The translations under genes and the position numbers were made by a program. 64,000 nucleotides of DNA from the IMG/VR virus record IMGVR_UViG_3300042505_001288. One strand, 5' to 3'. The stretch's first letter is position 1; every line of letters begins with the position of its first letter. Origin of the DNA: an uncultured virus (IMG/VR IMGVR_UViG_3300042505_001288) (Duplodnaviria; Heunggongvirae; Uroviricota; Caudoviricetes). Positions 11,701 to 46,783 of this stretch are shown piece by piece. The notes below the pieces were generated by a model, which worked only from the letters and a program-made list of their open reading frames with translations, did not search any database and was not told where the DNA came from.

Positions 11701-14700
11701 TTTACAATTTTTAATTTATAATCATCTCGTAATGCATCAATACCATTAATGGTGACCGTTGATGTACCTACTCTAACGTCTGGTGCCCATTTTAATGGGA
11801 ATATTAAGCGAGAACCAGTTCCAGAGAATGTTTCTATCTCTTGTAATTTAGTAATATAATATGACTGTGTAATTCTATCAAATTTTATCTTAACCAGATT
11901 TGAACGAATAACACCATCACCGATTATAGCAACTGCAGTTGCAGTTGTGCCAGTAGGCGATAACCCACCATCTAACTGAATAATTGGTGCAGACAAATAC
12001 CCTGAACCAGTTGTCATTAAAATCACACGAGTAACTTTACCATTTGCAATAAAAGCTTTTGCAGTAGCTGCAATTTTTGAGTTACCATTAATTCGAACTA
12101 CTGGTTCACTAATATAACCTGAACCACCATTAACTACTGTAATACTAAGTACATTAAATCCAACATTATCCAACCAATGTTTCCATGGATATGATTGAAT
12201 ATGAGAGTCATCTATATTAATAATACCATCTGTAACTGTTGTCTCAATCATCCCAATATTTCCATTGTCATATATTGGTGGTATGTCAAAATCAGTAACT
12301 GATAATTGATTTAATTCAGTTTTATTATATGCACTAATATATTCACGTACTTTAGTTCTATATGGTTTTACTTCTGATACATATTCTTCAAAATTTGTTA
12401 GGTTATCATTTTTGTATGTAACAGATTGGTGCAATTCGCCTAAGTTATGTTTTGCTTTTATGAAACTAGTTTTAAATATCCAATCAACATAGGATTGTTC
12501 ACTTAATACATATCTTACACATGTAAAAAATAAATTTAAATATTCAGTTTTCAAATCATCAATGAAAATGTCATTTTTAATGCTATTCAATATAACTCTC
12601 AATTCAGTTGATGCACTATTATCAAATATTCCACCATCATATAACAAATTATCATATCCAACAATTGTATGAGAAAACTCATACAATGAACTACTTAATT
12701 GAATAGTACCGTCCTGTGATGCTATTAATTGATATGAACTCGTCCAATCAATTGACTGAGAATCAGCATACTTTTTCAATACGACCCACGTTCCTAAATT
12801 TGTATATCGTACTTTGACTAATTCTCCAATATTAACTTCAATTGAATTTAAATCACTATATGTATCCACTGAATATTGTATTGCACTAAATTGATTATAC
12901 CCATTATCGTACCAATCAACATAATTCCAATATTTTCTAGTATCATATGTTTGTGAACGAACTCTAGACCATAATAATGTTGTTGGATCATATGAATAAA
13001 TGCTCCATACACCAGATGATTGAGAATCACTATGAACTAATACAGAATAATCCCTTACCACTAAAATAGTACTGTCATTATATCCATATCCACTGTTAAT
13101 AATAGTAACACCATCAATTTGCCCATATCCATTAAGTTTAGCTTTAATAACAGCATTTACACCTGAACCAACAACTTCAATAAATGGTGGATTAATATAT
13201 CCTCTACCAGAACTTTTTATAGTAATACCAGTAATTCTTCCATCAATTATTTGCGGTTCTATAACAGGTCTAGAATAAGAGTTGATATTTGCAAATCTTA
13301 ATTCTGCATCAGTATCAACTATATCATCATATAATCCTCGTATAATATGTGGTTCGGTTTCATAACTTTCTAGGTTACTAATATCGCGTGTTTCAGTGAT
13401 TAATCTAGATTTTAATATTAAATTGGTCTGTTCAACATATTGTTTTAATGCCTCGTATCGATTTATAAACATGCTTTGATTAGGTCTAAATTCAACCCCA
13501 TAGCGTAATTTTAATGGCAATGTTGTATCAGGTATTACTCTTTCCTGTTCATCCTTTCCACATAGACTATCAATCCATTTTTTTTCCAATTGTGAAGGTA
13601 TGGTACTATTAACATCTGTACTCAACATTTTCCACTGTGAATGAATATTATTCTCACTGTTTTCAACTAACCAATATTCAACTGATAATACAACGTTTTT
13701 ATCATTTAATAATGATTTTACATTAACCAAGCTAAATGAATTAGAACCAGTCAATGCAAGATATTGATATCCTTCCCCACGTGGGTTTGATATTAAACTA
13801 GATATATCTTGGGCAGAAATATATCTACCAGTTGTATTAGGTGTAGTTTTTTTATTTTTAACCCAATAGTAATATGTATTTTTAAATGTTTTACTAACAT
13901 TATCATACTTTCGTTTTATACTGTATGCTGCATCTCCATATAATGATTTACCACTCATACCAATAGTCAACCCAACCTCAGTATCAGCTTGTAAATCCCA
14001 GTCAGATGGAAGATATTTTGATTCAACCCATTCATAGATATCAACAGATGCACCAGTTGCTAATGTACTCCATGTACTGTTTCTATAAACAACATCATTA
14101 TCATTACTATCAATGAATTTTGAAGTTCTCAAATCCCACCATAATGTTCCAATATTTTTAGTAGTCCATGCCATACCATCATCAACATTCACAGTTGATG
14201 TCCCAACTGTGTATATCGCTGGATCATAGAAAACTTTATATTTTATTTCCGATTCAGCAATACCTGCTATTTTACCATTTAATGGATCAATTATATCCAA
14301 GTATTTTATTAATTCATTGGTTGATTTATTATATAAGAACGCCTGTTTTATTTTTTTAACGTCTGGAATTAATATTTCACTATGTTTAATTTTCCAACTA
14401 TATACATTTGGTTGTTTTTTATATTCATATATTACTCCAGCTTTTATATTATTAGAAAAAGCATATGGTGAACTAACTAAAATATTATTATTTGAGGCAG
14501 TCAGGACAGTGCCATATCCATCAACCTCAGAATCAGTCATTTCTAAGCTTTCACTAAAAACCCACTTAGACCCATAATTGTTATAAACATCAATTCTTCC
14601 ACTATCTAAATTATTTTCATCAATAAATATGGTAGTTTTATCATCAAATGTAGTATCATCTATAAAATTACATTTCACCTGAGTGTCAGCATTTTTACTA

Positions 14701-17700
14701 TAAACCAATAATGTTTTATAATCATTTGTAAATAATAATTTAGTACCAAAATATCCAGATACTTCTATGTTATTGTTTATTAATGATTGATATAATTCAT
14801 ACTCAATACCATTGTTTTTATAAACAATAACTTTACCTTCATTATTTTTATCACCATCAAATAAAATGTCTGAAATAGAAATATATTCACCAGATGATGA
14901 AATAGTTATATCTTTTCCAAAATATGCATTAGTTCCACCAATTGTTTGTGCCAATACATCATTTTCATATACAAATACTTTACCAGGTAAATCAATGTTA
15001 CCAGGAGCTGAAATTAAAAGAGTAGATCCATCAACAGTACCAACTATTTTATTGCCATATCCACTATTTGTATTAGTACCATGTTTTGTTTTTGATGTAT
15101 TATATTTCCATTCAGTTGTAATAAACTTAATAATTCCAGTTGGGGTTGAATCAGGTTCTAGGTTTAATAATATGGTTTTATTAACAGAATCTACACTTAC
15201 TACGGTTTGTGATTTTGTAAATCCAATACCAGTTACTTTCATTCCAGGTAGTATTCCCGATACTGTAGATAATTTTATTGTGGTTCCTTTGCTTCCTATT
15301 TCATCATAGTATGCAGATACCCATTCTGTATTAGAATATTCTAATTTATACACAGTACCATTTCCATACTCAGCACCAACATATAAGCAATTAATACCAA
15401 AAAATAAACTTGAACCAAATTTTTCATTCTGAGTTGGGTTTGGACTTAAAATGGTTGCGACTAGTGTATAGATATTATTAATATCTTTTTCATATAACGA
15501 TATCACACCATGATTAACAATACTTGATGCATTTAACTGTTCATCAATAGCATTAATAAATCCATTCGTTTGATATGAACCATTACTAGTGTTAGGAGAT
15601 CCGGTTGCCATCCATCTATTATCAATAGACATTGCAATAACATTTGCAATATTTGAAACATCATTAGGATTTACATGGTCAACATCCGGGGTTATAAATG
15701 GAGTTTCAATGATTTGACGTTGTACCCATGGGCCAGTACTACTTCCTCTATCATATGTTATAACTTCTCCAGTTTCTAAGGTAGTCGCAAGTAATCTAGC
15801 ATCTGAATTTATTGAAATTACCTTACCATATTTCAAGTTATTACTTGGATTTCTATATAAATGGGTAGTACGTGTGTAAACCTGAGAGTATTCCCATGTT
15901 GACCACATTCCTGTTCCATTGTCATCAGTCCATAATAACTCATTTTCCTTTAATACTTTTGGTAGTTTTAAATCAATATTATCTATAGAATCAACACGTT
16001 GACTTATAAATGAATAAATTATGGTATTTTTATTATTTTCATATGGTAGATCTATCTGCAATCCAATTACGTCAATCGTTAATACATTTAGTTTAACATC
16101 GGAAATTTTATAAAATCCACTTATACCAGTTGTTATATATGTACCATCAACTTTTATGTTTTCTCTAATCCCAATATAAGATCCAATAGGTAATGAAATT
16201 AATGAATCAGCAGTAATAGTTAATTTATTATTGCTATAAGTAATATCATTAATTACAATATTTGCATCTGTATATCTATAAACATTCCATCCGTTTATAT
16301 CAAATGAGCACCATACGTAATCACCATTAGAAAAATTTGTAATATCTTGTGTTAAAATATCATCAATTGATTTTAAGCTAACTAATACTTCATCTTCTCT
16401 CACATACCCAGAAGTTCTTAAAAATGGTTTTTTAGATGTTAACATTGGCCATGGATTTGAATTGTATCCAACTGGTTTTAAATATACATCATTTTGTGAT
16501 TGTCTTATAATAAAATCAACAGAAGTGGTATCAATTTTATTCACCAACTCAATTCCTTGTGGATTATTTTTGAATAGTGATTCATCTAAAATAAATTCAA
16601 TATTTTCATATGAATTACTAGCGCCATATTGACCAACCCGAACTGCCCATTCTTCGTTAAATTTCAAACTTTCTTGGTTATCGGCACTTAATACATCAAA
16701 AAGTTTATTCAATACATTTTGAGTCCCTTTTTCAAGTATCATTCCTTGATAAAATTTAAACTCACTAACATCATCTTGAATAATATTTTCTAAATATTGA
16801 CGTTTTTGATATCCAATCAAATGTTGTGCCATTTTTTGTTGTGTTATATCAAAGTTATCGCTATCCAAACTATAAAAATCTTCAAATTGACTGGCTTTGT
16901 AATTCCAATTTGGAAGTAACGCTGCTTCAGGTTTTTTATCTAGTTTAATCCATAACGTATGATTAAATTCATTAGTACCATTTATAAATTTACTAGAACT
17001 ATAATAAAATTCTTTATATTTTACAATATCACCAAGCGCATAATCTTTCCATGCTTCCCAATCTTGTATTTTAGCTTGATCAAAGATAAAACCAGGCACA
17101 TCAAATGCACCATACCAACCAATACTAAGATATCCAGATACTTTTATTCTATCTTGTTTATATCCACTTTCTGGATTATATATGGTGTCATTAAACATTG
17201 TAGAATTATCTAGAATAACAACTTGCTCTTTTTGAACTAAGTAAAAGGTAGCGCCATAAATACCGTCATCACCCTGTGGTGTATAACTAACTGCATTATC
17301 TTCTCTATACGAATTCAAGAAGTTATATGGTATAGCTTGACCATCTACGCGATATATTTCATATCCATTAAATGAATTGGTAATATCATCAACAACTGAT
17401 AATGGTGAACTAAATGTTAATTTTTCAGCAGCTGGACTTAATGAAATCACCGAACTTCCAATAGAACTCAACCCATCCAATTTTGCAAAATCATGTTCGT
17501 TGAATATAGATGATTGAGAATTTCTGATTGCACGATAATAATCACCGTTATATCGCACTATTGATCCATATGATACTAATACATCAGCATCCCATTCATC
17601 CCATTTATCTTGCCCAGTTGACCAATTTTGAGTAGTCCAGAATAAAAATTCTTTCGCACTGGTTTCCCAGTTAGTTACACTGGCTATATTAGTATTAAAA

Positions 17701-20700
17701 TCATCAAAAATAAATCCTTGATCTTTTAAATATTCACCATAACCTTGTAAAAAATCTACTACTTCTTGTGTAGTTCTAAATTTAGTATTATACGGAATAA
17801 TTAATGCCGATTCTCTATCCCAACGTTTTCTTAGAATTGCATCTTTACCACCTATAATAGGCAATTCAGCTAATACTTGATAATATGATTGGTCAAATGT
17901 TGTACCAGTTGTATGTAATGATTTTACTCTATAATATTTTCCATTATAATTTACAATTTTACCAGCAGAATATTGTTGATTTGATGTCCATTGTAGATAA
18001 CTTTCTGATATACCACCAACATTTATTGTAATTCCTGATTGTTGCCATGCATAATATTTGAAATATGGAGTGGTTTTACTATATCCTTTAACTTCAAATC
18101 CATCAGCCATTTTGGTAACAATTACACCACTATATGTAATTTTTTTAATAGGATTTGAACTATTCAAAATTATATCATAATTTTCTTGCGGTACAAAAAC
18201 ACTACCAGTTGACAATGGGGTCTTGGAATCTAATAATAAATTGAATTTTTCTTTACTTGTAAAAGATCCAAGTCTATGCGATATTCTAGCTGAAATATTG
18301 GTTAAATCATATTGATATTGCGTATATGATTTTAAATTATCACTTAAAATATAATTAACTAAATAATTTATTATGCCAGCAGTCTGTTCTCTAGTATTAC
18401 TAGATTGAATACTTGGTAGTACAATATCACTTGGTTTGATTCGTAATCCTGTGTCTTTATATACTAGTTGTCCTGTTTTATTTCTAATAATCCTAGAACG
18501 ATCTAATAATACTCCGATAGATTTATTTGGGTTTAATAATAATACAGTAATTAAAATCCCAAATGAGTAGTATGAACTACGTCTCCATGCTGATTCAATT
18601 GGGCTGCTATCACCAAACACAAAATCACCACCAATTGATTCAGTTATGATCCCATTTGCCAAATCAGACATAATAGGACTCACCAATGCACCATATTCAT
18701 CTACTGGTATATGGTTTGTTATAAATGGTTTAGCATACTTTTCCAATCTAATAGTAGGCTTACCTGGTTCTTTTACATAGCCATTGCTAATGTCATCCCA
18801 CAATACAAAATTATTACTAGTATACGGCGCAGGTCCATATACATCTGTCCACCAATATGGTTCTTCAGTAAATCCTAGCATCTCCCACGGGCACAGGTGC
18901 GGTCTATCAGTATCTAAAATCCATTTATATACCCCACGCCAATATCCTGGAACGTTACTTCCATCTGGTGCTGAATGCCCTGAATAGTTATAAGTGAATG
19001 AATTACTTCTATCAAAGCTCAATGGTTTTGAAAAATCTCGATCTATTAATGATGTCCATTTATAAAAATTAGGAGCTAAAACTGTATTGAATTCTGATAA
19101 ACTATAGTCGGTTTTTCTGTTATATCCTGGAATGGTATCATTTAAATCAAATATTGTTATATCGTATTGTACTTTAATATTGTTGTAAATACGTTTTTCC
19201 AATTCTAATAACAATGCATCACGGTAATCAGGAGTACCATTAGCATCATATGTTCCATATGCCAATACTTGACTACCATCGTGTCCTTGAATCATCCATC
19301 GTGGTGTTATAAAACTAGTATCAAGATATATCATTGGTTGATATTTTGGAAATAGTCCTAGCTTTGTTGGTGTTTCAGGAACAAAACATCCATCGGTATT
19401 TTCATACTCATAAATTGTTATAATATCATCATTGATCAATTTTGATGTTATAACAACGAATCCTTGTCCATCAAAATAGTAATCACGACTATGTAATAAT
19501 TGCTCGTTGTTAACATATATAATTACAGCTTTATTAGATAATGTTTCTGTTGTGAATACAGTTGTTAATGGATAAAGTTTTATTCTATAATCAACTACTT
19601 GTATTGTGGTTTTTATACTAGCACCATATGGAACCATATCACTAAAATAATAAGGAAAAGTATTCGGTTTATCTTTGTTAATTTTATCCAATATTAGATC
19701 TATATGTGTTATTACATCAATGTCTACCCCTGTACGTTCAGCAATTTTAATAAAATTTCGTTTAAAATTACCATAATCATCTCTACTTTTTTCTATTGAT
19801 CTTATAATATTGTTAGTTTCAGTTGTTATATGGTATAAAGATAAACTTGCTGGACCGCTGTGTTGTATGAATCGAGTACCATATTGTGATATATTACCCA
19901 AATCTCTTAAATTACTAGTGCCTGGGAAATCACCAGAAAAGTTTGATAAATTATCAACAATTGAATTTACATGATCAATAACTTCACCAAGTGTAAAATC
20001 AGTCATCTCATCATTCATTGGATTGTTCTGGAGATTTAATGGTATTTCATAGTACCCGTTCCCATTAATTCCCTGTGCTGCAAATGCTCTAATAGTTAAT
20101 ATATCTGTTGGCATTACATCGGTATCTAACTGCACGACTTTATATGTTGGACCATCAATTATCTGCCATTTAGAATTATCCAATCTAGTACCATTTACAT
20201 ATACTTTTATGGTTAAATCATCCAACTCATTAATATTATCAAATATATCAATTTGAAAATCATTTAATTGAGTGGTTGATTTATAAATTCTAATCGCAGC
20301 TTGTGTGTTATCAATTGTATTTTTTTGCCAGCCATTTACATATTCAGTATTCCCAGCATAATCCATTTTTGATAAATATCCAACATTAATTTTTTTATTA
20401 ATAACTGTTGATAGTTCTTTATATATAAAGGTGTCTGAGATTAAGTTAAAATTAAAAACAATATCACCTATATTATTAATATTTTTATATGATAATGGGA
20501 ATCCTAGAACTGAGTCAGCTGGTCCTGATCCAATCTTATATGAAAATAACTTAGTTCCACTAAAAGTAGAGCCAGTAAAGGTATTAATATCACTATAACT
20601 AACACCAGTGTCATCAACAACATCAAATAATGGTGGTTGATTTAATGATGTTTTTTGCTGTGTTTTAACCCAATTATCACCATTGAACCAATACATTTCC

Positions 20701-22289
20701 CCTTGATTTTTAACACCTGAATGAATTAAAACCACTTGATCAATAGTCGGTGTGCTAACTTCAACCAAATGAATAATTTTTGATAAGGATACACCATTCA
20801 ATGATAGATGTTCAAAATCTAAAATTTCTACTTCATATATTTTATTTTTAACTAATGGATCTGTATCAGCTGCTGCTAGAATTCTATGACCAGCTAGTAA
20901 ATCCACACCATCAATGTTATACCCATGTGATCCTTCAATTGTTGAAAATATATCAGTTGTATATGTATCTATAAGATCAACATCATTAATAGCAGTTGTT
21001 CCAAAATTAAATAATCTTATATCAGCTTCAAATTCAATAATTGCACGGTTTGCTCTTGCTGATTGATCTAAGTCAGCTATTTTATTATTGAATCTAGCAC
21101 TCGATTCTATAGTATCTTTATGGAACCATCTATTATATCTAGACCAAGGATTATGATCTCTACTAGCTCTATTAATAACAATGTAATCTGGCTGCCCTGC
21201 ATATGATAATGCATCATTGAATGGCAATTTATCAAAAGGTGTTGTATCAAATTCAACATTAACTGATGATGTATAAGAACTTGTCATCTCTAATACAGAT
21301 TCATTAACCAATCTTATCGAAGACCCAATACCTTCAACATAATATTTTCCAGTAGAATATTCAGAAGGTTCTACATTTCCACCAAATGTAACTTTCATGC
21401 CATTACTTAACGGTGTCCCGTCTGGTAATTTGTATGTTTTTTTACCTAATATCTCAGTTTCTACATTGATATATGAATTTTCTTCAATCGATAAAATGTG
21501 AATTACTCCACCTAAATCAGTATCATTTTCACTTTGATAATATAATACAGATGGTGCATCATGCGGAACTGTAAAAGTTATAGTACCAGTTTCTATAGTA
21601 TTATTTTTCAACCCTATATTAGTATATCTATTACTAGAACCAGAACTTCTATGTGTTTTGAAACTAAATGGATTTCCAGGACTTGTTATTTCAAAATTGT
21701 ATGTTTGTCCTTTGAATAAAGTAAGTACTGGATTTCTATCCAATCCATTTGGGGTGAATATATATGTATTATTGTCGCCTTCAGATTCTATGTTTACAGT
21801 GTAAGTACTTTCTATAGCATGTTTCTGCCCATATATTCTAACTACATCTGGTCCATATGGTAACCAATAATAATTTTGAAAGTTCGATATTTTATCCCAA
21901 TCAATATGTGGATCCCAACTGTAAAATTCTTCTTTATTAATTCTAGAATGGTTTGATACATCACTACCAAATACGTCTAATTGATTGATATAATCAATAT
22001 AATCTTTAAACAAGGTAGTGTTGTTCAACGTATCTTTAATAACTAATCCAGGCTCTAATTGATAATTTTGTCGAACTGTATCAGTAGCAGAAACAAATAT
22101 ATCTTCCCCAGAAGTTGCTTTAGCATTTCTACGACCAATATAACCATTTACTTTTTTAACAGTGCCAGGTTTAATTAATTGATCCATTGTAGCTTGTAAA
22201 AACTTTTTATTAAAATCAGTTGCATAGATTCTTGGTAAAAAGGTTGAAGAAATGTTATTACTGGCGTTTGGTTTTGTGCTATCAGCCAT
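8715..22289 (-). CDS. Giant (4524 aa) multidomain baseplate wedge/structural protein (gp7-like position)
   Basis: Uninterrupted 13.6 kb ORF coupled (TAATG) to the gp6-like gene; contains GxGY repeats, CBM-like W..Y..G.IV.Y repeats and propeller-like repeats. Confidence 0.7.
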   Translation of the reverse strand: MADSTKPNASNNISSTFLPRIYATDFNKKFLQATMDQLIKPGTVKKVNGYIGRRNAKATSGEDIFVSATDTVRQNYQLEPGLVIKDTLNNTTLFKDYIDYINQLDVFGSDVSNHSRINKEEFYSWDPHIDWDKISNFQNYYWLPYGPDVVRIYGQKHAIESTYTVNIESEGDNNTYIFTPNGLDRNPVLTLFKGQTYNFEITSPGNPFSFKTHRSSGSSNRYTNIGLKNNTIETGTITFTVPHDAPSVLYYQSENDTDLGGVIHILSIEENSYINVETEILGKKTYKLPDGTPLSNGMKVTFGGNVEPSEYSTGKYYVEGIGSSIRLVNESVLEMTSSYTSSVNVEFDTTPFDKLPFNDALSYAGQPDYIVINRASRDHNPWSRYNRWFHKDTIESSARFNNKIADLDQSARANRAIIEFEADIRLFNFGTTAINDVDLIDTYTTDIFSTIEGSHGYNIDGVDLLAGHRILAAADTDPLVKNKIYEVEILDFEHLSLNGVSLSKIIHLVEVSTPTIDQVVLIHSGVKNQGEMYWFNGDNWVKTQQKTSLNQPPLFDVVDDTGVSYSDINTFTGSTFSGTKLFSYKIGSGPADSVLGFPLSYKNINNIGDIVFNFNLISDTFIYKELSTVINKKINVGYLSKMDYAGNTEYVNGWQKNTIDNTQAAIRIYKSTTQLNDFQIDIFDNINELDDLTIKVYVNGTRLDNSKWQIIDGPTYKVVQLDTDVMPTDILTIRAFAAQGINGNGYYEIPLNLQNNPMNDEMTDFTLGEVIDHVNSIVDNLSNFSGDFPGTSNLRDLGNISQYGTRFIQHSGPASLSLYHITTETNNIIRSIEKSRDDYGNFKRNFIKIAERTGVDIDVITHIDLILDKINKDKPNTFPYYFSDMVPYGASIKTTIQVVDYRIKLYPLTTVFTTETLSNKAVIIYVNNEQLLHSRDYYFDGQGFVVITSKLINDDIITIYEYENTDGCFVPETPTKLGLFPKYQPMIYLDTSFITPRWMIQGHDGSQVLAYGTYDANGTPDYRDALLLELEKRIYNNIKVQYDITIFDLNDTIPGYNRKTDYSLSEFNTVLAPNFYKWTSLIDRDFSKPLSFDRSNSFTYNYSGHSAPDGSNVPGYWRGVYKWILDTDRPHLCPWEMLGFTEEPYWWTDVYGPAPYTSNNFVLWDDISNGYVKEPGKPTIRLEKYAKPFITNHIPVDEYGALVSPIMSDLANGIITESIGGDFVFGDSSPIESAWRRSSYYSFGILITVLLLNPNKSIGVLLDRSRIIRNKTGQLVYKDTGLRIKPSDIVLPSIQSSNTREQTAGIINYLVNYILSDNLKSYTQYQYDLTNISARISHRLGSFTSKEKFNLLLDSKTPLSTGSVFVPQENYDIILNSSNPIKKITYSGVIVTKMADGFEVKGYSKTTPYFKYYAWQQSGITINVGGISESYLQWTSNQQYSAGKIVNYNGKYYRVKSLHTTGTTFDQSYYQVLAELPIIGGKDAILRKRWDRESALIIPYNTKFRTTQEVVDFLQGYGEYLKDQGFIFDDFNTNIASVTNWETSAKEFLFWTTQNWSTGQDKWDEWDADVLVSYGSIVRYNGDYYRAIRNSQSSIFNEHDFAKLDGLSSIGSSVISLSPAAEKLTFSSPLSVVDDITNSFNGYEIYRVDGQAIPYNFLNSYREDNAVSYTPQGDDGIYGATFYLVQKEQVVILDNSTMFNDTIYNPESGYKQDRIKVSGYLSIGWYGAFDVPGFIFDQAKIQDWEAWKDYALGDIVKYKEFYYSSSKFINGTNEFNHTLWIKLDKKPEAALLPNWNYKASQFEDFYSLDSDNFDITQQKMAQHLIGYQKRQYLENIIQDDVSEFKFYQGMILEKGTQNVLNKLFDVLSADNQESLKFNEEWAVRVGQYGASNSYENIEFILDESLFKNNPQGIELVNKIDTTSVDFIIRQSQNDVYLKPVGYNSNPWPMLTSKKPFLRTSGYVREDEVLVSLKSIDDILTQDITNFSNGDYVWCSFDINGWNVYRYTDANIVINDITYSNNKLTITADSLISLPIGSYIGIRENIKVDGTYITTGISGFYKISDVKLNVLTIDVIGLQIDLPYENNKNTIIYSFISQRVDSIDNIDLKLPKVLKENELLWTDDNGTGMWSTWEYSQVYTRTTHLYRNPSNNLKYGKVISINSDARLLATTLETGEVITYDRGSSTGPWVQRQIIETPFITPDVDHVNPNDVSNIANVIAMSIDNRWMATGSPNTSNGSYQTNGFINAIDEQLNASSIVNHGVISLYEKDINNIYTLVATILSPNPTQNEKFGSSLFFGINCLYVGAEYGNGTVYKLEYSNTEWVSAYYDEIGSKGTTIKLSTVSGILPGMKVTGIGFTKSQTVVSVDSVNKTILLNLEPDSTPTGIIKFITTEWKYNTSKTKHGTNTNSGYGNKIVGTVDGSTLLISAPGNIDLPGKVFVYENDVLAQTIGGTNAYFGKDITISSSGEYISISDILFDGDKNNEGKVIVYKNNGIEYELYQSLINNNIEVSGYFGTKLLFTNDYKTLLVYSKNADTQVKCNFIDDTTFDDKTTIFIDENNLDSGRIDVYNNYGSKWVFSESLEMTDSEVDGYGTVLTASNNNILVSSPYAFSNNIKAGVIYEYKKQPNVYSWKIKHSEILIPDVKKIKQAFLYNKSTNELIKYLDIIDPLNGKIAGIAESEIKYKVFYDPAIYTVGTSTVNVDDGMAWTTKNIGTLWWDLRTSKFIDSNDNDVVYRNSTWSTLATGASVDIYEWVESKYLPSDWDLQADTEVGLTIGMSGKSLYGDAAYSIKRKYDNVSKTFKNTYYYWVKNKKTTPNTTGRYISAQDISSLISNPRGEGYQYLALTGSNSFSLVNVKSLLNDKNVVLSVEYWLVENSENNIHSQWKMLSTDVNSTIPSQLEKKWIDSLCGKDEQERVIPDTTLPLKLRYGVEFRPNQSMFINRYEALKQYVEQTNLILKSRLITETRDISNLESYETEPHIIRGLYDDIVDTDAELRFANINSYSRPVIEPQIIDGRITGITIKSSGRGYINPPFIEVVGSGVNAVIKAKLNGYGQIDGVTIINSGYGYNDSTILVVRDYSVLVHSDSQSSGVWSIYSYDPTTLLWSRVRSQTYDTRKYWNYVDWYDNGYNQFSAIQYSVDTYSDLNSIEVNIGELVKVRYTNLGTWVVLKKYADSQSIDWTSSYQLIASQDGTIQLSSSLYEFSHTIVGYDNLLYDGGIFDNSASTELRVILNSIKNDIFIDDLKTEYLNLFFTCVRYVLSEQSYVDWIFKTSFIKAKHNLGELHQSVTYKNDNLTNFEEYVSEVKPYRTKVREYISAYNKTELNQLSVTDFDIPPIYDNGNIGMIETTVTDGIINIDDSHIQSYPWKHWLDNVGFNVLSITVVNGGSGYISEPVVRINGNSKIAATAKAFIANGKVTRVILMTTGSGYLSAPIIQLDGGLSPTGTTATAVAIIGDGVIRSNLVKIKFDRITQSYYITKLQEIETFSGTGSRLIFPLKWAPDVRVGTSTVTINGIDALRDDYKLKIVKTVVNGHTNYVGSLTFLTAPSNNAIVSITYIKDWSLLNAADRIQYYYNPGDGELGKDLSQLMTGIDYGGVIVSGLGFEVSRGWDSSPYYSDKWDTMDSTFDDYIVYVAADTREFNLPYVPETGVVITVYHKPADSTDDPLRIDDQYYNTVDQTNSNAVMSSFIGDGIHKTITIPDSVDVNENDEFIFRKITSDGSIKPLEADYDTALSGGDLVYSTARGLAADDIIIDGDGFITPTSSPAPEEVIPGQVVDTVAIKVFDMQSNGSANINIDNYYADGIVKTFPITHGSTNNKSIIVKVSTNNQSVIKSIGVDYSIDGITNAIVFGQAPVADSLISIFEIGYSGNNLLDIGHDIGDGNTKEFLTCAPWLQPVSSLVNINGVSGSYTLINQDGFIAIKFDEAPEVYSNIDYIISNGVNQSFSFSKIEKIPADGRASALPYSLMTTYGDSLPLEAKMIVRVDQAILKAPNNSYFTIKSNKLNYTVNKINKQPYKDDVYTINVYAGGKLLTIGADYSIDLSGITVKITKDSYTKYNGEQLVISLISDQGYSYVPATSSEPAKIYFKEIYNSSNTVEIINSYQHANLDIQRSDLNLDITLVSEEPEYYIYNNILGGIITLDRPVINDNYVWVVKNGILLIPSVDFKLNENKSSIEVVNGSISTDEFSIITFGSNILLPSIAYMQFKDMLNRTHYKRLSLKKQTTLVNELKWNDTIITVVDGSNFDKPNPTNNKPGIIEIRGERIEYFEITGNILSKLRRGTLGTGTPTIHEVGSFVQDIGASETIPYSEAPITKQIVSTGSKVIELDDIIPTKSLTTWTYDSGYISSIPSTYGQADDIEVFIGGYDDSSMWVSSVNYAIDDIVIIGSYTYRCKEAHMSGLSFHDDILKWDFFIGNIRLKKQPYKVHNVNINQDSPSGDIQFDADFAVDGTSSTIRLTNELSSGTRVTIVKRSGINWDGYNMDLLNQGYRLGNYSSSVYGGSDAISTFLKAEPGIWYSLLK

Positions 22290-32261: not shown

Positions 32262-32900
32262 TCAAATATAAGACCAATTCTGAAATTTTTTACTACCACT
32301 TTTGCATCTTTTACAAACATTATTAGCTGTTATATTATGTGAGATCCCAGCATCTTGTAGTGAATTATAAATAATTCCATTAATTAGTACCTTTTTATAT
32401 TGTTTAGGTCTATTTTTCATTTTTTCATAAAATTCAGGATTTTTCCATAATTCTTTTCTGTAAATCGATAAACGGCGTTTAAATTCCTCATTATTTTTGA
32501 GCTTCATCAATCCAGCCAATGCAGCGGTTCTATATTCATAATTAGTTTTCCATTCGTGTTTTAATTTATCACTTTTCAATTGCTTCAAGTATGCATATAT
32601 CCTTGATGAAGTTTTGAATGTTCGGTCATGATTAGTAGTTTTCCATCTTAAAAATGATGATGCTGCATGTATCATCTTATATTGATCTTTACCACATGTA
32701 ATTTTAATCAATAACAAATGACATATATAATGCTCTCTTGCTGTTAATTGTACTAAATTTAATTTTGTATTGTCACCACCCATACTTTTTGGTATTATAT
32801 GATGTTTTTCAACATACATATCGGTAGGCAAAATTCGGTGTTGTGCATTATATATAATAGAAAAATACCACTTTTTATACTTATTATCAATAAATATCAT
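32262..32900 (-). CDS. Free-standing HNH homing endonuclease (Mob-like)
   Basis: EKHHIIPKSMGGDNTKLNLVQLTAREHYICHLLL HNH motif; basic C-terminal DNA-binding region (INGIIYNSLQDA). Confidence 0.85.
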   Translation of the reverse strand: MIFIDNKYKKWYFSIIYNAQHRILPTDMYVEKHHIIPKSMGGDNTKLNLVQLTAREHYICHLLLIKITCGKDQYKMIHAASSFLRWKTTNHDRTFKTSSRIYAYLKQLKSDKLKHEWKTNYEYRTAALAGLMKLKNNEEFKRRLSIYRKELWKNPEFYEKMKNRPKQYKKVLINGIIYNSLQDAGISHNITANNVCKRCKSGSKKFQNWSYI

Positions 32901-35837: not shown

Positions 35838-35876
35838 AAAATAGGGCTTGACAAGCCCTATTTTTTTGTGTATAAT
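35838..35876 (+). promoter_or_regulatory. Overlapping terminator-like hairpin and sigma70 promoter
   Basis: AAAATAGGGCTTG-A-CAAGCCCTATTTT inverted repeat plus T-run; TTGACA(35848)-17 nt-TATAAT(35871). Confidence 0.85.
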
Positions 35877-35883
35877 GCTTTGT

Positions 35884-36237
35884 ATGGGTAGAAAAGTTGA
35901 ACCAAAACAAGATTACGCACCGAGAGTTTATAGCTGGCAGTTAGAGCAGATTCCAACTGATGATGAAATTCACGATAAATTAATTCATGCTTTCCAACAA
36001 TATTATAAAGCTAATTTGCATTGGATCCAAGCCGGTACTAAACGTTCTGGCCAAGATGCAAGATATTGGTTAAATGAAATTAACATCCTTTCTAAACAAC
36101 AACGTAAAGTTATTTTAGAATGGCTTAATAAAATTAAAGATAAAACCAATAAAGATAGAAGTTTTAAATCAACTTCTAGAAAACAACGTAAACTTTTACA
36201 GATTCAAGGTAGGGTGAACCCATCGGAAGATAACTAA
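35884..36237 (+). CDS. Small basic helical protein, possibly nucleic-acid binding
   Basis: The track start (TTG 35848) lies inside the -35 box, so ATG 35884 is more plausible. GTKRSGQDARYWLNEI weakly recalls the KAAGxRARK motif of small histone-H1-like proteins. Confidence 0.55.
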   Translation: MGRKVEPKQDYAPRVYSWQLEQIPTDDEIHDKLIHAFQQYYKANLHWIQAGTKRSGQDARYWLNEINILSKQQRKVILEWLNKIKDKTNKDRSFKSTSRKQRKLLQIQGRVNPSEDN

Positions 36238-36304
36238 ATAATTCCACCAATATAACTTCCAAAGATAAATACATTTATTATAAAATAGTATATTGGAGGT
36301 TATA

Positions 36305-37486
36305 ATGGATTATGGACACTGGTTATTTAATGTTGAATTTACTACTGATGAATGGTTCGGTTTTATCTATAAAATTACAGAACTTGATACTGGGCGTGAA
36401 TATATTGGTAAGAAACAATTTTTTAATACTACTCGAAAAATTGTTAAAGGTAAGAAAAATAGAAAAAAAGTAATTTCTGAATCAAATTGGAAAGTTTATA
36501 CAGGTTCATCTGAGCATCTAAATTCTCAAATTAGTATAAAAGGTAAAGAAAATTACAAATTTGAAATATTATCATTACACGATTCAAAAGGATCATTACA
36601 TTACGCTGAAGTAGAATACCAAATTACACACAATGTCCTCCGGGAATTATTAGATGATGGAATTACAAAAAAATACTTTAATAGAGCAGTTGCAGGTGTT
36701 AAATTTATTCCACCGGTAGAATCTGTTGATGAAACTAGAATAGCAATCAGTAAAATTCTAACAGGAGATAATTATACAATAGCGAAAATGACTGTTGCTG
36801 ATTATGAAAAGTGGTTGGATGAGAATTTAAGAGGTGAACATAACCCAATGTTTGGTAAAATCCCTCATAATAAGAATAAGACATTTGAAGAATTATATGG
36901 TGTTGAAAAAGCAGCCAGGTTAAAAAAAATGTTAAGCAATTATGCAAAGCAACAATTTTTAAATGGTAAAATGAATCATGGTAAACATTCTGATGAAACT
37001 AAAGAAAAATTGAGACAGGCAAATATAGGCAAACACAAAGGAAAAAATAATAATATGTATGGTAAGCCATGTTACCATAAAATGGATGAAAAACAAATCG
37101 AGGCTTGGAAAGAAAACATAAGTAAAGCAACAAAGGGTAAAAAATTATCAGACACCCATAAAGCTGCAATGAAAAAAAATTGGGATAATAACCCAATTAG
37201 AAAAAAAGAATGTGCGATTCGTCGTTCTGAAATGAATAAAATGTTAAGCGACGAACATAAAAACGCAACCCGGAATTCAAATATAAAACGTGGATATGAG
37301 ACTACTAGAAAAAAAGTAGAAAATGATTTAGAAAGATATATTAATATCACTAGATTATTGAATAATGGTAGATTAGTAAAAGATATTGCTATTGAGACCG
37401 ATTCCACGTATAGATTAGTTTGGATCATTTCGAAAAAAATAGAATATTATGTATCTATAATAAATGATATTAAAGGCACACAATAG
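36305..37486 (+). CDS. GIY-YIG (Seg-like) endonuclease with NUMOD3-type repeats and a C-terminal HTH-like end
   Basis: FGFIYKITELDTGREYIGKKQF...WKVYTGSS; repeats GEHNPMFGK, HSDETKEKLRQA, GKNNNMYGK, KGKKLSDTHK. GGAGG SD before ATG 36305; ATAAATA motif at 36265. Confidence 0.8.
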   Translation: MDYGHWLFNVEFTTDEWFGFIYKITELDTGREYIGKKQFFNTTRKIVKGKKNRKKVISESNWKVYTGSSEHLNSQISIKGKENYKFEILSLHDSKGSLHYAEVEYQITHNVLRELLDDGITKKYFNRAVAGVKFIPPVESVDETRIAISKILTGDNYTIAKMTVADYEKWLDENLRGEHNPMFGKIPHNKNKTFEELYGVEKAARLKKMLSNYAKQQFLNGKMNHGKHSDETKEKLRQANIGKHKGKNNNMYGKPCYHKMDEKQIEAWKENISKATKGKKLSDTHKAAMKKNWDNNPIRKKECAIRRSEMNKMLSDEHKNATRNSNIKRGYETTRKKVENDLERYINITRLLNNGRLVKDIAIETDSTYRLVWIISKKIEYYVSIINDIKGTQ

Positions 37487-37930
37487 GTATCATCAGGCAA
37501 TTTAACCGAACACTCTAAGGCACACTCTAAGGCAACTCTAGGCTCCACACTTCTGAAATACTCGCACAGGTAGATTGATATGTGCCGTTGGCAATGGAAT
37601 GTTCTTCGCATTGAGCGCAACAACTGAGCAGAAGCAGTGACTTTTTCGACTACCTACACCTTGTGTTGTAGATGATGATTGGATACGCCTTCCGTAAAAC
37701 CAATTTCGAAAATTTGAACAAATGAAAAAAGGCTAAATGACTGGGTAATTCCCAGACGTAATAGGAATTTGACTAGAGTATTTTCCTATTGCCACCGTTG
37801 GACATCAGAAACAAAAACGCACTTCGAGGTAACGGCCAACCGCCTCTGTAATAGTGTAACTCTAGGTAATGAAGTAACTCAAATGAGAATTTATTATTTT
37901 TTGCTCCCTTCGGGGGGCAAAATGTGTAAA
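37487..37930 (+). ncRNA. Candidate large structured non-coding RNA (unassigned family)
   Basis: No ORF in the track and visibly GC-richer than the flanks. At least 8 stems, two loop-to-distal complementarities and a terminal C(UUCG)G hairpin at 37899-37922. Confidence 0.6.
37510..37543 (+). repeat. Tandem 12-bp repeat (2 perfect copies + 1 degenerate)
   Basis: ACACTCTAAGGC ACACTCTAAGGC AACTCTAGGC. Confidence 0.9.
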
Positions 37931-38006
37931 TCATAATCTAAATGAGTATAGCACATATACATTACTTTTGATAATAAGAGAACAGTGAAGAGCGATAGCG
38001 ATGAAC

Positions 38007-38024
38007 AGGGGAACATGTTCCCCT
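38007..38024. repeat. Perfect 18-bp palindrome
   Basis: AGGGGAACATGTTCCCCT, just upstream of the ATAAATA motif at 38032. Confidence 0.9.
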
Positions 38025-38059
38025 CCTATGAATAAATATATTATTGACGGATTAATAAA

Positions 38060-39124
38060 ATGAAAGTATATGAAATTGTTAGTACAAATAAAGAATTAAA
38101 TGAAGGACTCAAATCAAAAATATTTGGTGGTGCACTCGATGCAATTATGAATGTTCTTGGTAAGGGATCTGCTAAACAACACCTTGATGATTTATCTCGG
38201 TTTGTTCGGTCAAATGGGAAGCTTGATATTGATTCAATAAGAAATACTAGAAAGTATGGAAATTTTGTTGCTGATAAACTTGAAAGTGACCCTAAATTAG
38301 TTAAGCAAATAGAAAAGATAGCAAGTAATAAGATAAGCAATGCTACTTTTACAAAAAATGTAGCAGAACTTAAAGCAATTACATCTAAAATAAAAACTGC
38401 AGCTGGATCTTTACTTTGGGCAATTGATTCTGCAGCACAATTATATATTGGATTTAAAGGATTATATGAACCAATTGCAACATATTATAGCAATATTGAA
38501 ATTGCTGAAGAGCGATACTTAGATACTGGTAAATGGACACCTGAAGAATTTAATACATATCATAGACGTGAAGCTGGTGCATTGGTTGGTAAATTAACAG
38601 CCAATATAGTTGCTTTTACTGCATCCAGAATACCAGGCGCTATTGTAAAAACTGTTTTAGTAAGATTATCGAAGATATTAGGTAAAGCTGGTAATATTGG
38701 CCCATTAGAAACTATTATTTCTGGTATGAATACAGCTGCTGCTGCTGCTGCAATACAATGGATTAATAACGAACATAATGCATCAATTATTGCTAATTTG
38801 TTAGCGAAACCATTGATAGCTGACATATCAGCGAATGATATAGCTGGTGGTGCTATTACTACAGTAATTGATGCTTTTAAGGGTATTAGCAATCAATCAA
38901 CCAGTAGTAATATCAGTGGAATTCCATCTAGTGATGCTGCAATTGGAAATAACAGTAGTACAGAACCAAATAATACTGCATCCACACCAGTTAGTACACA
39001 AACACCAGCTGCAACTGGATCGGGATCACCCGCAGCGTATAATCCTGATGATTGGGAATATTATACGCCATCCTTGGTTAAAAATAAGAAAACTGGTGAG
39101 ATTAATTTCAAGCAATCAAATTAA
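38060..39124 (+). CDS. Hypothetical late protein, possibly head-internal/ejected
   Basis: 354-aa ORF after a late-promoter motif; helical with hydrophobic stretches and a Ser/Thr/Pro-rich tail. Confidence 0.6.
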   Translation: MKVYEIVSTNKELNEGLKSKIFGGALDAIMNVLGKGSAKQHLDDLSRFVRSNGKLDIDSIRNTRKYGNFVADKLESDPKLVKQIEKIASNKISNATFTKNVAELKAITSKIKTAAGSLLWAIDSAAQLYIGFKGLYEPIATYYSNIEIAEERYLDTGKWTPEEFNTYHRREAGALVGKLTANIVAFTASRIPGAIVKTVLVRLSKILGKAGNIGPLETIISGMNTAAAAAAIQWINNEHNASIIANLLAKPLIADISANDIAGGAITTVIDAFKGISNQSTSSNISGIPSSDAAIGNNSSTEPNNTASTPVSTQTPAATGSGSPAAYNPDDWEYYTPSLVKNKKTGEINFKQSN

Positions 39125-45491: not shown

Positions 45492-46118
45492 ATGTTATAT
45501 CTCCGAGAAAACCTCAGTTTCAACGAAGCACAGATGATCGTTGAATCTGATGATAGAGAAGGTAAAACATTGCATATGTCAGGTATCTGCATTCAAGGCG
45601 GTATCCGTAATGCAAATCAACGTGTTTACCCTGTGAGCGAGATTAGCAAGGCTGTTAAGACCCTTAACGATCAGATTCAAAACGGTTATTCAGTACTCGG
45701 AGAAGTGGATCATCCAGATGATCTAAAAATAAATTTGGACCGTGTGTCACATATGATAACTAATATGTGGATGGATGGTCCAAATGGTTATGGCAAGCTT
45801 AAAATCTTGCCAACCCCTATGGGACAACTAATTAAAACAATGTTGGAAAGCGGCGTTAAATTAGGTGTCTCCTCTAGAGGTTCTGGAAACGTCAGTAGTG
45901 ACGGGTCCAATTCAGTATCAGATTTTGAGATTATCACAGTAGATATGGTAGCCCAGCCGTCCGCTCCAGGTGCTTACCCAACACCAATTTATGAACACCT
46001 AATGAATACAAGAGGTGGTTATAATGCCTTCCGCGTAGCGCAAGAGGTGAAAGGTGATCCACAGGCGCAAAAATATCTCAAAGAATCTTTAGTTAATATT
46101 ATTAATGGATTGAAATAA
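45492..46118 (+). CDS. 21: Prohead core protease (T4 gp21-like)
   Basis: NANQRVYP, LGEVDHP, RVSHMI, LGVSSRGSG, DMVAQPSAPGAY. Confidence 0.95.
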   Translation: MLYLRENLSFNEAQMIVESDDREGKTLHMSGICIQGGIRNANQRVYPVSEISKAVKTLNDQIQNGYSVLGEVDHPDDLKINLDRVSHMITNMWMDGPNGYGKLKILPTPMGQLIKTMLESGVKLGVSSRGSGNVSSDGSNSVSDFEIITVDMVAQPSAPGAYPTPIYEHLMNTRGGYNAFRVAQEVKGDPQAQKYLKESLVNIINGLK

Positions 46119-46783
46119 TGACGATTGCTTATCTGTATAAATGGACAAATAAATTATCTGGAAAATGGTACATAGGATCTAGGACTAGAAAAGATTGTCA
46201 TCCAAATGATGGTTATATTTGTTCCAGTAAACTTGTTAGACCAATGATAATTGAAGATCGGTCTAAATGGAAAAGAACCATTTTGGTTATCGGTAATCCA
46301 CAATATATTAGAGAATTGGAAAGTAAATTATTAACTAGTTTAAATGCTGCGGACAATGACATGAGTTTTAATCAACACAATGGTGCTGGAAAATTCTCTA
46401 CTACCGGAATAGCCCCATGTAATAAAGGCAAAACTGGATTACAAGTAGCATGGAATAAAGGACTACCAAAAGAAAAACAACCGTTTTTTGGAAAATCAAT
46501 TAGTCATGAAGTTCGTGAAAAATTAAGTATTAGAAAACAGGGTGAAAATAACCCAATGTACGGTAAACCAGCATGGAACAAGGGTTTAACTGGTATAACC
46601 CATTCTGACGAATCGAATAAAAAACGCAGTGAATCGTTGAAAGGGAAATCTCGTTCACCAGAAACGATAGCAAAAATAAAAAGAACAAAAGCAGCTAACA
46701 AAGCTGCGAAACTAAATACAGCAGTAGAAATACCAACGTATAACAAAACCGAGAGCCTGTATTATACAGGAAATCTCCAATAA
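46118..46783 (+). CDS. Free-standing GIY-YIG homing endonuclease with NUMOD3-type repeats
   Basis: AYLYKWTNKLSGKWYIGSR..DGYICSS; repeated WNKG, GENNPMYGK and HSDESNKKRSESLKGK; TAATG coupling to the protease. Confidence 0.85.
   Translation: MTIAYLYKWTNKLSGKWYIGSRTRKDCHPNDGYICSSKLVRPMIIEDRSKWKRTILVIGNPQYIRELESKLLTSLNAADNDMSFNQHNGAGKFSTTGIAPCNKGKTGLQVAWNKGLPKEKQPFFGKSISHEVREKLSIRKQGENNPMYGKPAWNKGLTGITHSDESNKKRSESLKGKSRSPETIAKIKRTKAANKAAKLNTAVEIPTYNKTESLYYTGNLQ

Follow-up and report, generated by a model that had tools for sequence, protein, structure and literature searches.

We examined a stretch of 64,000 nt from an uncultured virus (IMG/VR record IMGVR_UViG_3300042505_001288; the whole stretch is called the window below), and in it a 12-nt tandem repeat that precedes a structured non-coding RNA. 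The source of the window is a T4-like myovirus with a G+C content of ~30-35%, whose genes, by Pfam and PHROG matches, include a gp55-like late sigma factor, gp47/gp46-like nuclease subunits, a baseplate hub, the gp20 portal, the gp21 protease and the gp23 capsid protein. A gap of 570 nt separates a SegE-type endonuclease gene from an open reading frame (ORF) of unknown function at 38060-39124, and the repeat lies in this gap. Blastn of 37440-38060 against a phage GenBank collection gave no match. The gene upstream of the gap and the array within the gap are:

36293-37486 (+): SegE-type GIY-YIG homing endonuclease gene, 397 amino acids (Pfam SegE_GIY-YIG, 3.8e-33, and NUMOD3; PHROG homing endonuclease)
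37510-37543 (+): tandem array of 2.7 units of ACACTCTAAGGC in the 5' leader of the RNA, with three AGGC words (37518-21, 37530-33 and 37540-43) and lineage-specific spacers

The array was reported by Tandem Repeats Finder at 37510-37540 (period 12, 2.7 copies, 95% matches, score 55). Its units are ACACTCTAAGGC at 37510-21 and again at 37522-33, followed by AACTCTAGGC at 37534-43; further AGGCA words stand at 37474-78 and 37495-99, that is, in the 3' end of the endonuclease gene and the next 40 nt. In a repeat search, the pair of 12-mers was returned as exact (D7), and AACTCTAGG as a direct repeat of 9 nt at 37534-42 and 37858-66 (D11). The first-pass annotation had located these words correctly, and also two loop words to which the halves of the repeat are complementary: GCCTT (37687-91), within the loop of the last hairpin of an Rfam match (P5; GAUUGG / CCAAUU), and CTAGAGT (37773-79), within the loop of the hairpin 37760-67 / 37783-90 (I24). 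It had proposed that the two loops read the two halves of the repeat, or that the repeats are competing strands of a conformational switch. When 20,000 random 12-mer arrays of local base composition were compared with nine hand-listed hairpin loops, 2.0% matched at least 7 nt on one loop, and 0.63% matched at least 7 nt on one loop and at least 5 nt on a second.

The RNA belongs to the Polynucleobacter-1 family, an orphan structured RNA of 2010 with no assigned function. The covariance model RF01718 matched 37559-37715 (+) over its full length (model positions 1-141 of 141), scoring 61 bits where the gathering score is 37 (E = 1.6e-10). Conservation among relatives begins sharply at ACUUCUGA (37549) and extends to ~37950, and upstream of this onset only the AGGC(A) words are kept. 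The window RNA is an extended, ~400-nt member of the family with several pseudoknots (PK), and its parts are:

37550-37555 (+): CUUCUG, the 5' pseudoknot strand, pairing with the P3 loop CAGAAG (37629-34) and marking the 5' edge of the fold
37559-37715 (+): Polynucleobacter-1 core, helices P1-P5 (RF01718 covariance model and covariation)
37684-37699 (+): P5 hairpin loop with GCCUU (37687-91), from the Rfam alignment; unchanged in all 13 clade-A rows of alignment A1
37730-37734 (+): AAGGC, likely internal partner of the P5 loop (PK1)
37760-37790 (+): hairpin H7 (I24), AAUAGGAA / UUCCUAUU, with loop CUAGAGU (37773-79)
37797-37801 (+): GUUGG, candidate partner of the 3' hairpin loop CCAAC (37836-40) (PK3)
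37826-37846 (+): 3' hairpin GAGG-UAACGGCCAACCG-CCUC, kept more widely in the RNA superfamily than any other motif (pattern AGGTANCGGCYRACCGCCT, 90 stretches in viral contigs)
37859-37865 (+): ACUCUAG, the true partner of the H7 loop (PK2), from compensatory change and from SS_cons_1 of the published seed
37866-37950 (+): conserved 3' part in the relatives' alignments, comprising GUAAUGAAGUAACUCAAAUGA, a hairpin at 37899-37922 (I17) and then GUAAAUCAUAAUCUAAAUGAGUAU

Relatives were collected by protein-anchored and DNA-pattern scans of viral, metagenome and genome contigs, which yielded a clade A of 12 distinct close relatives that have a leader (a count that takes in the window itself) and 15 clade-B sequences. 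The first, strict DNA pattern returned 108 stretches, mostly chance matches in coding sequence; nhmmer recovered 17 loci, and six clade-B loci were added by eye. RF01718 matched 25 of the 40 related loci scanned. Scanning for the 3' hairpin added 90 more stretches, and the core profile placed the RNA ~250 nt upstream in 64 of these, of which 46 were distinct and are called distant relatives below. One 327-kb viral contig (behind L173, L175, L188 and L211) carries four separate copies of the 3' hairpin motif, i.e. several paralogous RNAs.

Comparison of these relatives supported the fold. Core helices P1-P5 gave a covariation of 0.280 against 0.141 in shuffles (none of 500 as high) and at most 0.123 with slid partners, and 21 of the 43 core pairs were changed on both sides; helices 5 and 7 have a low cross-clade covariation score because the MAFFT alignment misplaces them. 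The 5' pseudoknot was paired throughout (100%) in the 24 distinct rows of alignment A1, one pair being changed on both sides (AU in 13, UA in 11). In clade B it reads CUACUG with CAGUAG, and across the wider set a complement of at least 5 nt was present in 50 of 57 sequences, with words as varied as UCGCCAA, UUGCUAA and CCGUUAAA. The H7 stem covaries among relatives (AAUAGGAA, AUUAGGAA, AUUACGAA), as does that of the 3' hairpin (GAGG/CCUC vs CAGG/CCUG). A single-sequence fold of 37500-37930 had a z-score of -0.65, which is uninformative for a pseudoknotted RNA. Two further pairings were considered and not kept: 37669-80 with 37929-40 (I6) shows wobble-compatible changes, but L136 breaks a pair and one strand overlaps P4a, and 37586-95 with 37788-97 (I16) has uncompensated mismatches in L004 and L142.

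Both loops to which the repeat is complementary have partners inside the RNA. The H7 loop is paired by PK2 in all 12 close relatives, as CTAGAGT/ACTCTAG in seven and CTAGCGT/ACGCTAG in five, and the wider family keeps a complement of at least 6 nt in 34 of 38 members with 18 distinct partner words. For the P5 loop, the words are GCCUU/AAGGC in 12 of 12 clade-A sequences, GCUU/AAGC in 15 of 15 clade-B sequences and GGUAU/AUACC in a published seed sequence. On these words GCCUU most likely pairs with the downstream AAGGC, although the published seed carries no annotation of this pairing. PK3 is a candidate read by eye, the seed included (GUUGG/CCAAC, GUCAG/CUGAC, GUUAG/CUAAC, GUUGU/ACAAC). The words of the repeat had already been recognized at first pass as those of the internal pseudoknot partners, and rightly so (AAGGC at 37730-34, ACUCUAG at 37859-65). 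Leader and loops are doubly complementary because the leader words are extra copies of the loops' internal partner strands (AAGGC at 37730-34 and AACTCTAGG at 37858-66). The complementarity of the ACTCTA half in the lineage of the window arises because the third unit, AACTCTAGGC, nearly copies the 3' strand AACTCTAGGT (D11).

We compared the ACTCTA half of the repeat with the H7 loop across relatives. A leader complement of at least 6 nt to the loop occurred in 4 of the 12 close relatives (the window, L134, L003 and L004), which form one lineage of nearly identical RNAs; the remaining eight had only 3-5 nt. In the five relatives with loop CTAGCGT, the 3' strand has switched to ACGCTAG and the leader has not followed. 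Among 38 wider relatives, 12 leaders matched the H7 loop region over 6 nt, mostly with A/T-rich words, and of these 12 only the window's own contig shares its word with the 3' partner. In a second lineage, L178, a spacer of the leader is complementary to the H7 loop of the same RNA and overlaps the partner word of that loop; by our own estimate, such an overlap is about what chance allows. The ACTCTA half is thus lineage-specific on these alignments and fails the comparative test. Its proposed role as a loop target is not supported, since the spacers vary independently of the loop and it is the 3' strand, not the leader, that follows a change in the loop. Copy number, which the annotation had suggested comparing among homologous loci, does vary: 2.7 units in the window against ~1.7, one unit fewer, in L134 and L003.

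The AGGC(A) half behaved differently. Within a 74-nt leader, 2-4 AGGC words were found in each of the 12 close relatives, with a per-leader shuffle probability of at most 2e-4 in 11 of them and 0.02 in one, and AGGCA was the sole 5-mer to occur at least twice in all 12 leaders. The spacing between words ranges from 8 to 55 nt, and the spacers differ in 8 of 12 while AGGC stays. In 35 of the 46 distant relatives AGGC occurs no more than 50 nt before P1, compared with 19% of 3,046 background windows; 31 of the 46 have it 22-28 nt ahead of P1, which is 5-8 nt before the 5' pseudoknot strand. The word is retained whether it falls in the last codons of the upstream gene, across the stop codon of that gene or in free leader. 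Arrays of three to four words occur in separate promoter-driven subfamilies (L171, L178, L187 and L183), and mostly one word where a gene abuts the RNA. In the 64 kb of the window, five pairs of AGGC words are spaced 5-10 nt apart against 1.8 expected; of these, two fall within the array and another within the endonuclease gene (37017). By its pattern of conservation, the AGGC(A) half is a real, selected, family-wide 5' element. The first-pass interpretation is thus partly supported: the AAGGC half is a conserved feature, with words in every close and most distant relatives, and the competing-strand role proposed for it is possible but weakened, since word and GCCU loop each occur without the other.

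Two observations on other arrays belong here. In the leader of L309, another distant relative, AAGGCATC occurs twice at an interval of exactly 12 nt (~1325-1350), an independent small tandem array. The sequence AGGCAAATATAGGCAAACAC at 37017-37036 (+) of the window, inside the endonuclease ORF, is similar to arrays in the leaders of some relatives, L142 and L136 among them, and may be due to chance or be a trace of the homing region.

The leader words lie just downstream of perfect, 12-of-12 sigma-70-like promoters in L065 and L226, and of a 9-of-12 match in L004; promoters similar to those of L065 and L226 are visible in L239, L171, L178 and L187. The leader words are therefore probably transcribed in these relatives and, by extension, probably in this phage. 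RNA-library Logan contigs of relatives (shares of at most 0.14; two runs, one freshwater sample) cover 37549-37947 and carry leader words. A scan of 37200-38300 showed no intrinsic terminator and sigma-70 promoter matches at chance level only, so that neither a terminator nor a promoter accounts for the array. Small ORFs in the gap, at 37769-37936 (+), 37773-37934 (-) and 37447-37623 (-), are unlikely to be coding, since relatives show paired changes there and indels of lengths not divisible by three.

We propose that the 12-nt repeat arose by recent duplication within the single-stranded 5' leader of a ~400-nt pseudoknotted phage RNA, each unit consisting of the conserved AGGC(A) word and a 7-nt spacer free to change. 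The RNA-proximal word, 5-8 nt before CUUCUG, belongs to the whole RNA family, and more copies accumulate in leaders that have their own promoter. Both loops pair internally, that of H7 (CUAGAGU) with the ACUCUAG strand of 37859-65 and that of P5 (GCCUU) most likely with the AAGGC of 37730-34, and the ACUCUA half matches its loop only through the resemblance of one lineage's spacer to the 3' pseudoknot strand. We consider this anatomy of leader and RNA, together with the rejection of two-part targeting, to be likely. As to function, AGGCA may serve for sequence-specific docking at the 5' edge of the fold, where a protein or a tertiary contact, and not a Watson-Crick guide, would recognize it; the extra copies may add redundancy or avidity. 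Since the word is invariant at a fixed place and is multiplied at irregular spacing without covariation, a docking site would fit better than a Watson-Crick guide. This mechanism, taken alone and with its reader a candidate, we put forward tentatively, as a serious possibility that falls short of probable.

Several observations weigh against the docking word and the anatomy around it. AGGC is missing from the 50 nt before P1 in 11 of the 46 distant relatives, and clade-B1 leaders carry ACUCC/ACUCA words in place of AGGC(A), which is thus not indispensable. The P5 loop of most subfamilies contains UGCCU, the 5-nt complement of AGGCA, which leaves a base-pairing role possible. Within the window the double complementarity is somewhat beyond chance, and spacers such as that of L178 may have a lineage-specific role as decoys. 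On transcription, the promoter scan of the window found nothing above chance at the leader, where the endonuclease gene has displaced the promoter of the relatives. One Logan contig runs more than 255 nt further upstream, and DNA carry-over is possible; these contigs show neither a 5' end nor a strand nor true transcription, and we draw no conclusion on habitat or expression from them. Moreover, many of the sequences are related, and sequence counts therefore overstate the number of independent events.

Clade-B leaders (L150, L147, L021 and L160) have repeated words of their own, ACUCC/ACUCA and ACUCG, often as CACACUC, which also occurs within the window spacer GCACACUCU. No partner was found for the clade-B leader words.

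Four other explanations of the repeat were weighed. Only the RNA-proximal word may matter, the upstream copies, including the exact 12-nt duplication, being neutral products of slippage or repair at the endonuclease junction. The two units are 100% identical and hence a recent duplication, relatives without the endonuclease have one unit fewer, and most distant relatives have one word, especially where a gene abuts the RNA; these facts agree with neutral copies. Against them stand the presence of at least two words in 12 of 12 close relatives, despite spacers diverged beyond recognition, and the recurrence of three- to four-word arrays in the separate promoter-driven subfamilies named above, and we regard neutrality as rather unlikely. 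In a competing-strand switch or folding guide, the early-transcribed AGGC(A) would pair with GCCU of the P5 loop and later be displaced by, or compete with, the downstream AAGGC, extra copies aiding capture. The possible duplexes are 4-6 bp in the clade of the window, with 5 bp in the window (AAGGC/GCCUU) and 6 bp in L148 and L126 (AAGGCG opposite CGCCUU), and 5 bp in most distant subfamilies (UGCCU opposite AGGCA), and the leader words resemble the internal partner AAGGCUAA. Yet these pairs do not covary: the clade-A loop CGCCU faces mostly AGGCA words with an A-C mismatch, the fifth base does not follow the loop, the clade-B loop GCUU stands with ACUCC/ACUCA leader words, and a change in the loop is accompanied by one in the downstream partner and not in the leader. 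The word is also kept without a GCCU loop in L185, L207, L221 and L152 (the first three with altered P5 loops), and a GCC-containing loop without the word in L192, L215, L224, L199, L163 and L216; L269-type RNAs have three AGGCA words, one in the leader and two inside the RNA, and their only GCCU is in the 3' hairpin stem. Of the switch suggested by the first-pass annotation, the ACTCTA half falls away and the AAGGC half is weakened by the persistence of word and GCCU loop each without the other; we judge it unlikely. Pairing of AGGC with the GCCU of the 3' hairpin was rejected as well, as this GCCU belongs to a stem with covariation of its own (GAGG/CCUC, CAGG/CCUG) and the base preceding the word does not change with it.

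The words might instead act in DNA, as protein-binding sites of an origin (iterons), an operator or the stretch recognized by the homing endonuclease encoded alongside. Spacings of 12 and 10 bp in the window, about one helical turn, and a nuclease gene directly upstream in many loci fit such sites, and T4 oriE has arrays of 12-nt iterons. We took iterons to be several repeats of ~17-22 bp (12 bp for T4 oriE), regularly spaced, kept as units and accompanied by an initiator protein. The words do not conform: just 4-5 nt are kept as the core, spacing among close relatives is 8-55 nt and distant relatives mostly have a single copy. In addition, the words keep a fixed distance to the RNA fold, whereas the distance from the promoter varies, with 2 to 15 nt between the -10 box and the start of the first word, and they are present in loci with and without the endonuclease, which makes DNA sites very unlikely. 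Two-part recognition, in which two RNA loops would read both halves of the repeat in the manner of EBS/IBS pairing or a bridge RNA, the repeats being targets or products, has in its favour that both halves are complementary to loops of the window, a double match that few random arrays reach (0.6%). Its ACTCTA half is absent in 8 of 12 close relatives and does not track the change from CTAGAGT to CTAGCGT, both loops have covarying internal partners, neither a group II intron nor any Rfam family besides RF01718 matched in the window, and neither a reverse transcriptase nor a recombinase was found among the 16 neighbouring ORFs scanned. We find it scarcely credible.

The analogy with group II introns and IS110 bridge RNAs, drawn at first pass, accordingly fails at its ACTCTA half, which does not covary, and in the lack of an intron, a reverse transcriptase or a recombinase in the scans. 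In group II introns (EBS/IBS) and IS110 bridge RNAs, short loops are complementary to two adjacent words elsewhere; here the partners are inside the RNA and covary there, and the 5' copies do not covary. A group II intron has six domains, including domain V, and usually encodes a reverse transcriptase; the window had no Rfam intron match. A bridge RNA adjoins an IS110-type recombinase gene and has loops that covary with target and donor DNA; here Pfam and PHROG scans of the neighbours found no recombinase, and the leader does not covary with the H7 loop. An analogy in manner of working only may be drawn with CsrB and RsmZ, multi-site protein-binding RNAs with repeated GGA words, A(N)GGA in hairpin loops. 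Shared traits are a short conserved word occurring two to five times at irregular spacing, a single-stranded A-rich context and the lack of covariation; here AGGCA sits on a large ornate fold and has a putative reader only. GOLLD and ROOL are large ornate phage-borne RNAs, and HEARO (omega RNA) lies beside nucleases. The window RNA resembles these as a large, multiply pseudoknotted non-coding RNA of phages with a nuclease gene often adjoining, but none of them matched the window at the gathering score, and there are loci that have the RNA and lack the GIY-YIG gene, and the reverse.

The Polynucleobacter-1 motif was described from Burkholderiales, fresh water and an estuary as possibly cis-regulatory (Weinberg et al. 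2010, PMC2864571). Parts 206-207 of supplement 5 of that paper give a seed that includes ~300-nt versions with H6, H7, the 3' hairpin and the H7-loop pseudoknot (SS_cons_1). The window RNA agrees with it in its full-length model match, its covarying P1-P5 and its H7-loop pseudoknot, placed as in SS_cons_1. It differs in that the Rfam model has 141 positions and starts after the 5' pseudoknot strand, and in its setting in a T4-like phage beside a homing endonuclease, as against the Burkholderiales of the motif description. A full-text literature search for 'Polynucleobacter-1' returned only Weinberg et al. 2010. As far as those supplement parts extend, the extended form and PK2 were already present in 2010, and the AGGC(A) leader word, the word arrays and the pseudoknot between the 5' strand and the P3 loop are outside the published alignment. 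Polynucleobacter-1 in T4-like water phages is thus part of a ~400-nt fold with at least three pseudoknots, and the family carries a 5' element not listed before, AGGCA at a fixed distance from the fold and often multiplied. This removes a tempting guide-RNA analogy and offers a defined 5' boundary, a small mutable element and a bait for pull-down, and the recurrent neighbouring nuclease gene is a lead on the spread of the RNA gene or on a working partner.

Upstream of the RNA, the nuclease gene differs between relatives. Those without the endonuclease (L004, L134, L003, L142 and L028) have a PDDEXK nuclease gene (PDDEXK_15 in L004) with a promoter-like TTGATT-17-CATAAT in its 3' end. In the window this gene is replaced by the SegE-type gene, and the cassette brings two more AGGCA words; L006 and L106 have the same cassette end with both words. 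A SegE_GIY-YIG protein of 141-144 amino acids, found in relatives, is 39% identical to the N-terminal domain of the window endonuclease. In 39 of 92 RNA loci such a small GIY-YIG gene precedes the RNA, with 3-125 nt between the two; at least 545 nuclease-linked loci exist. In the reverse direction, a member of the RNA superfamily follows the small GIY-YIG gene in 55 of 76 loci, and a coding gene follows directly in 21. The link between nuclease and RNA is strong and not obligatory, as the RNA and the GIY-YIG gene each occur alone. That different nuclease families (GIY-YIG and PDDEXK) occupy one spot suggests that homing endonucleases favour the conserved RNA gene as a landing site.

AGGCA could also be a landing pad that ties the RNA to a protein partner, possibly the upstream SegE-type nuclease, which would then be RNA-tethered or RNA-directed. 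In many relatives the nuclease is a bare catalytic domain of 141-144 amino acids without a DNA-binding domain, and its last codons overlap the word. We leave this reading open because of the linkage between the small GIY-YIG gene and the RNA (55 of 76 and 39 of 92 loci). Against it stand the 21 of 76 nuclease loci without the RNA, the many RNA loci, including clade A, with another upstream gene, and the different nuclease families at one spot, which look more like homing endonucleases; we regard it as a long shot. If true, it would be a nuclease of a kind not described.

Some further features of the locus and its relatives were noted. A second conserved block lies ~40-80 nt past the RNA, at 37985-38024 (+) in the window and also downstream of the L150, L021 and L066 RNAs. 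It reads GAGCG(A/T)TAGCGAT(G/A)..GAA followed by a perfect hairpin (AGGGGAACATGTTCCCCT in the window), is common to clades A and B despite their differing RNAs, and may serve either as a 3' element or as a signal for the gene that follows. A small basic protein, listed with 129 amino acids and without a Pfam or PHROG match, adjoins the nuclease gene and the RNA both in the window (35848-36237, +) and in L004 (1057-1446). Two other free-standing homing-endonuclease-like genes are present in the window at 32262-32900 (-) and 46118-46783 (+), one matching HNH and the I-TevI DNA-binding domain and the other NUMOD3; that at 46118-46783 sits between the prohead protease and capsid genes. The region 8715-22289 (-) is a single ORF of 4,524 amino acids, followed on the same strand by one of 1,152 amino acids and more large ORFs. 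L124, on a short contig from the bin of a Methylococcaceae genome, has a tRNA gene (38-108, +) ~270 nt upstream of the RNA. Of the five genome-contig matches, three are short contigs in Methylococcales bins and are probably phage DNA.

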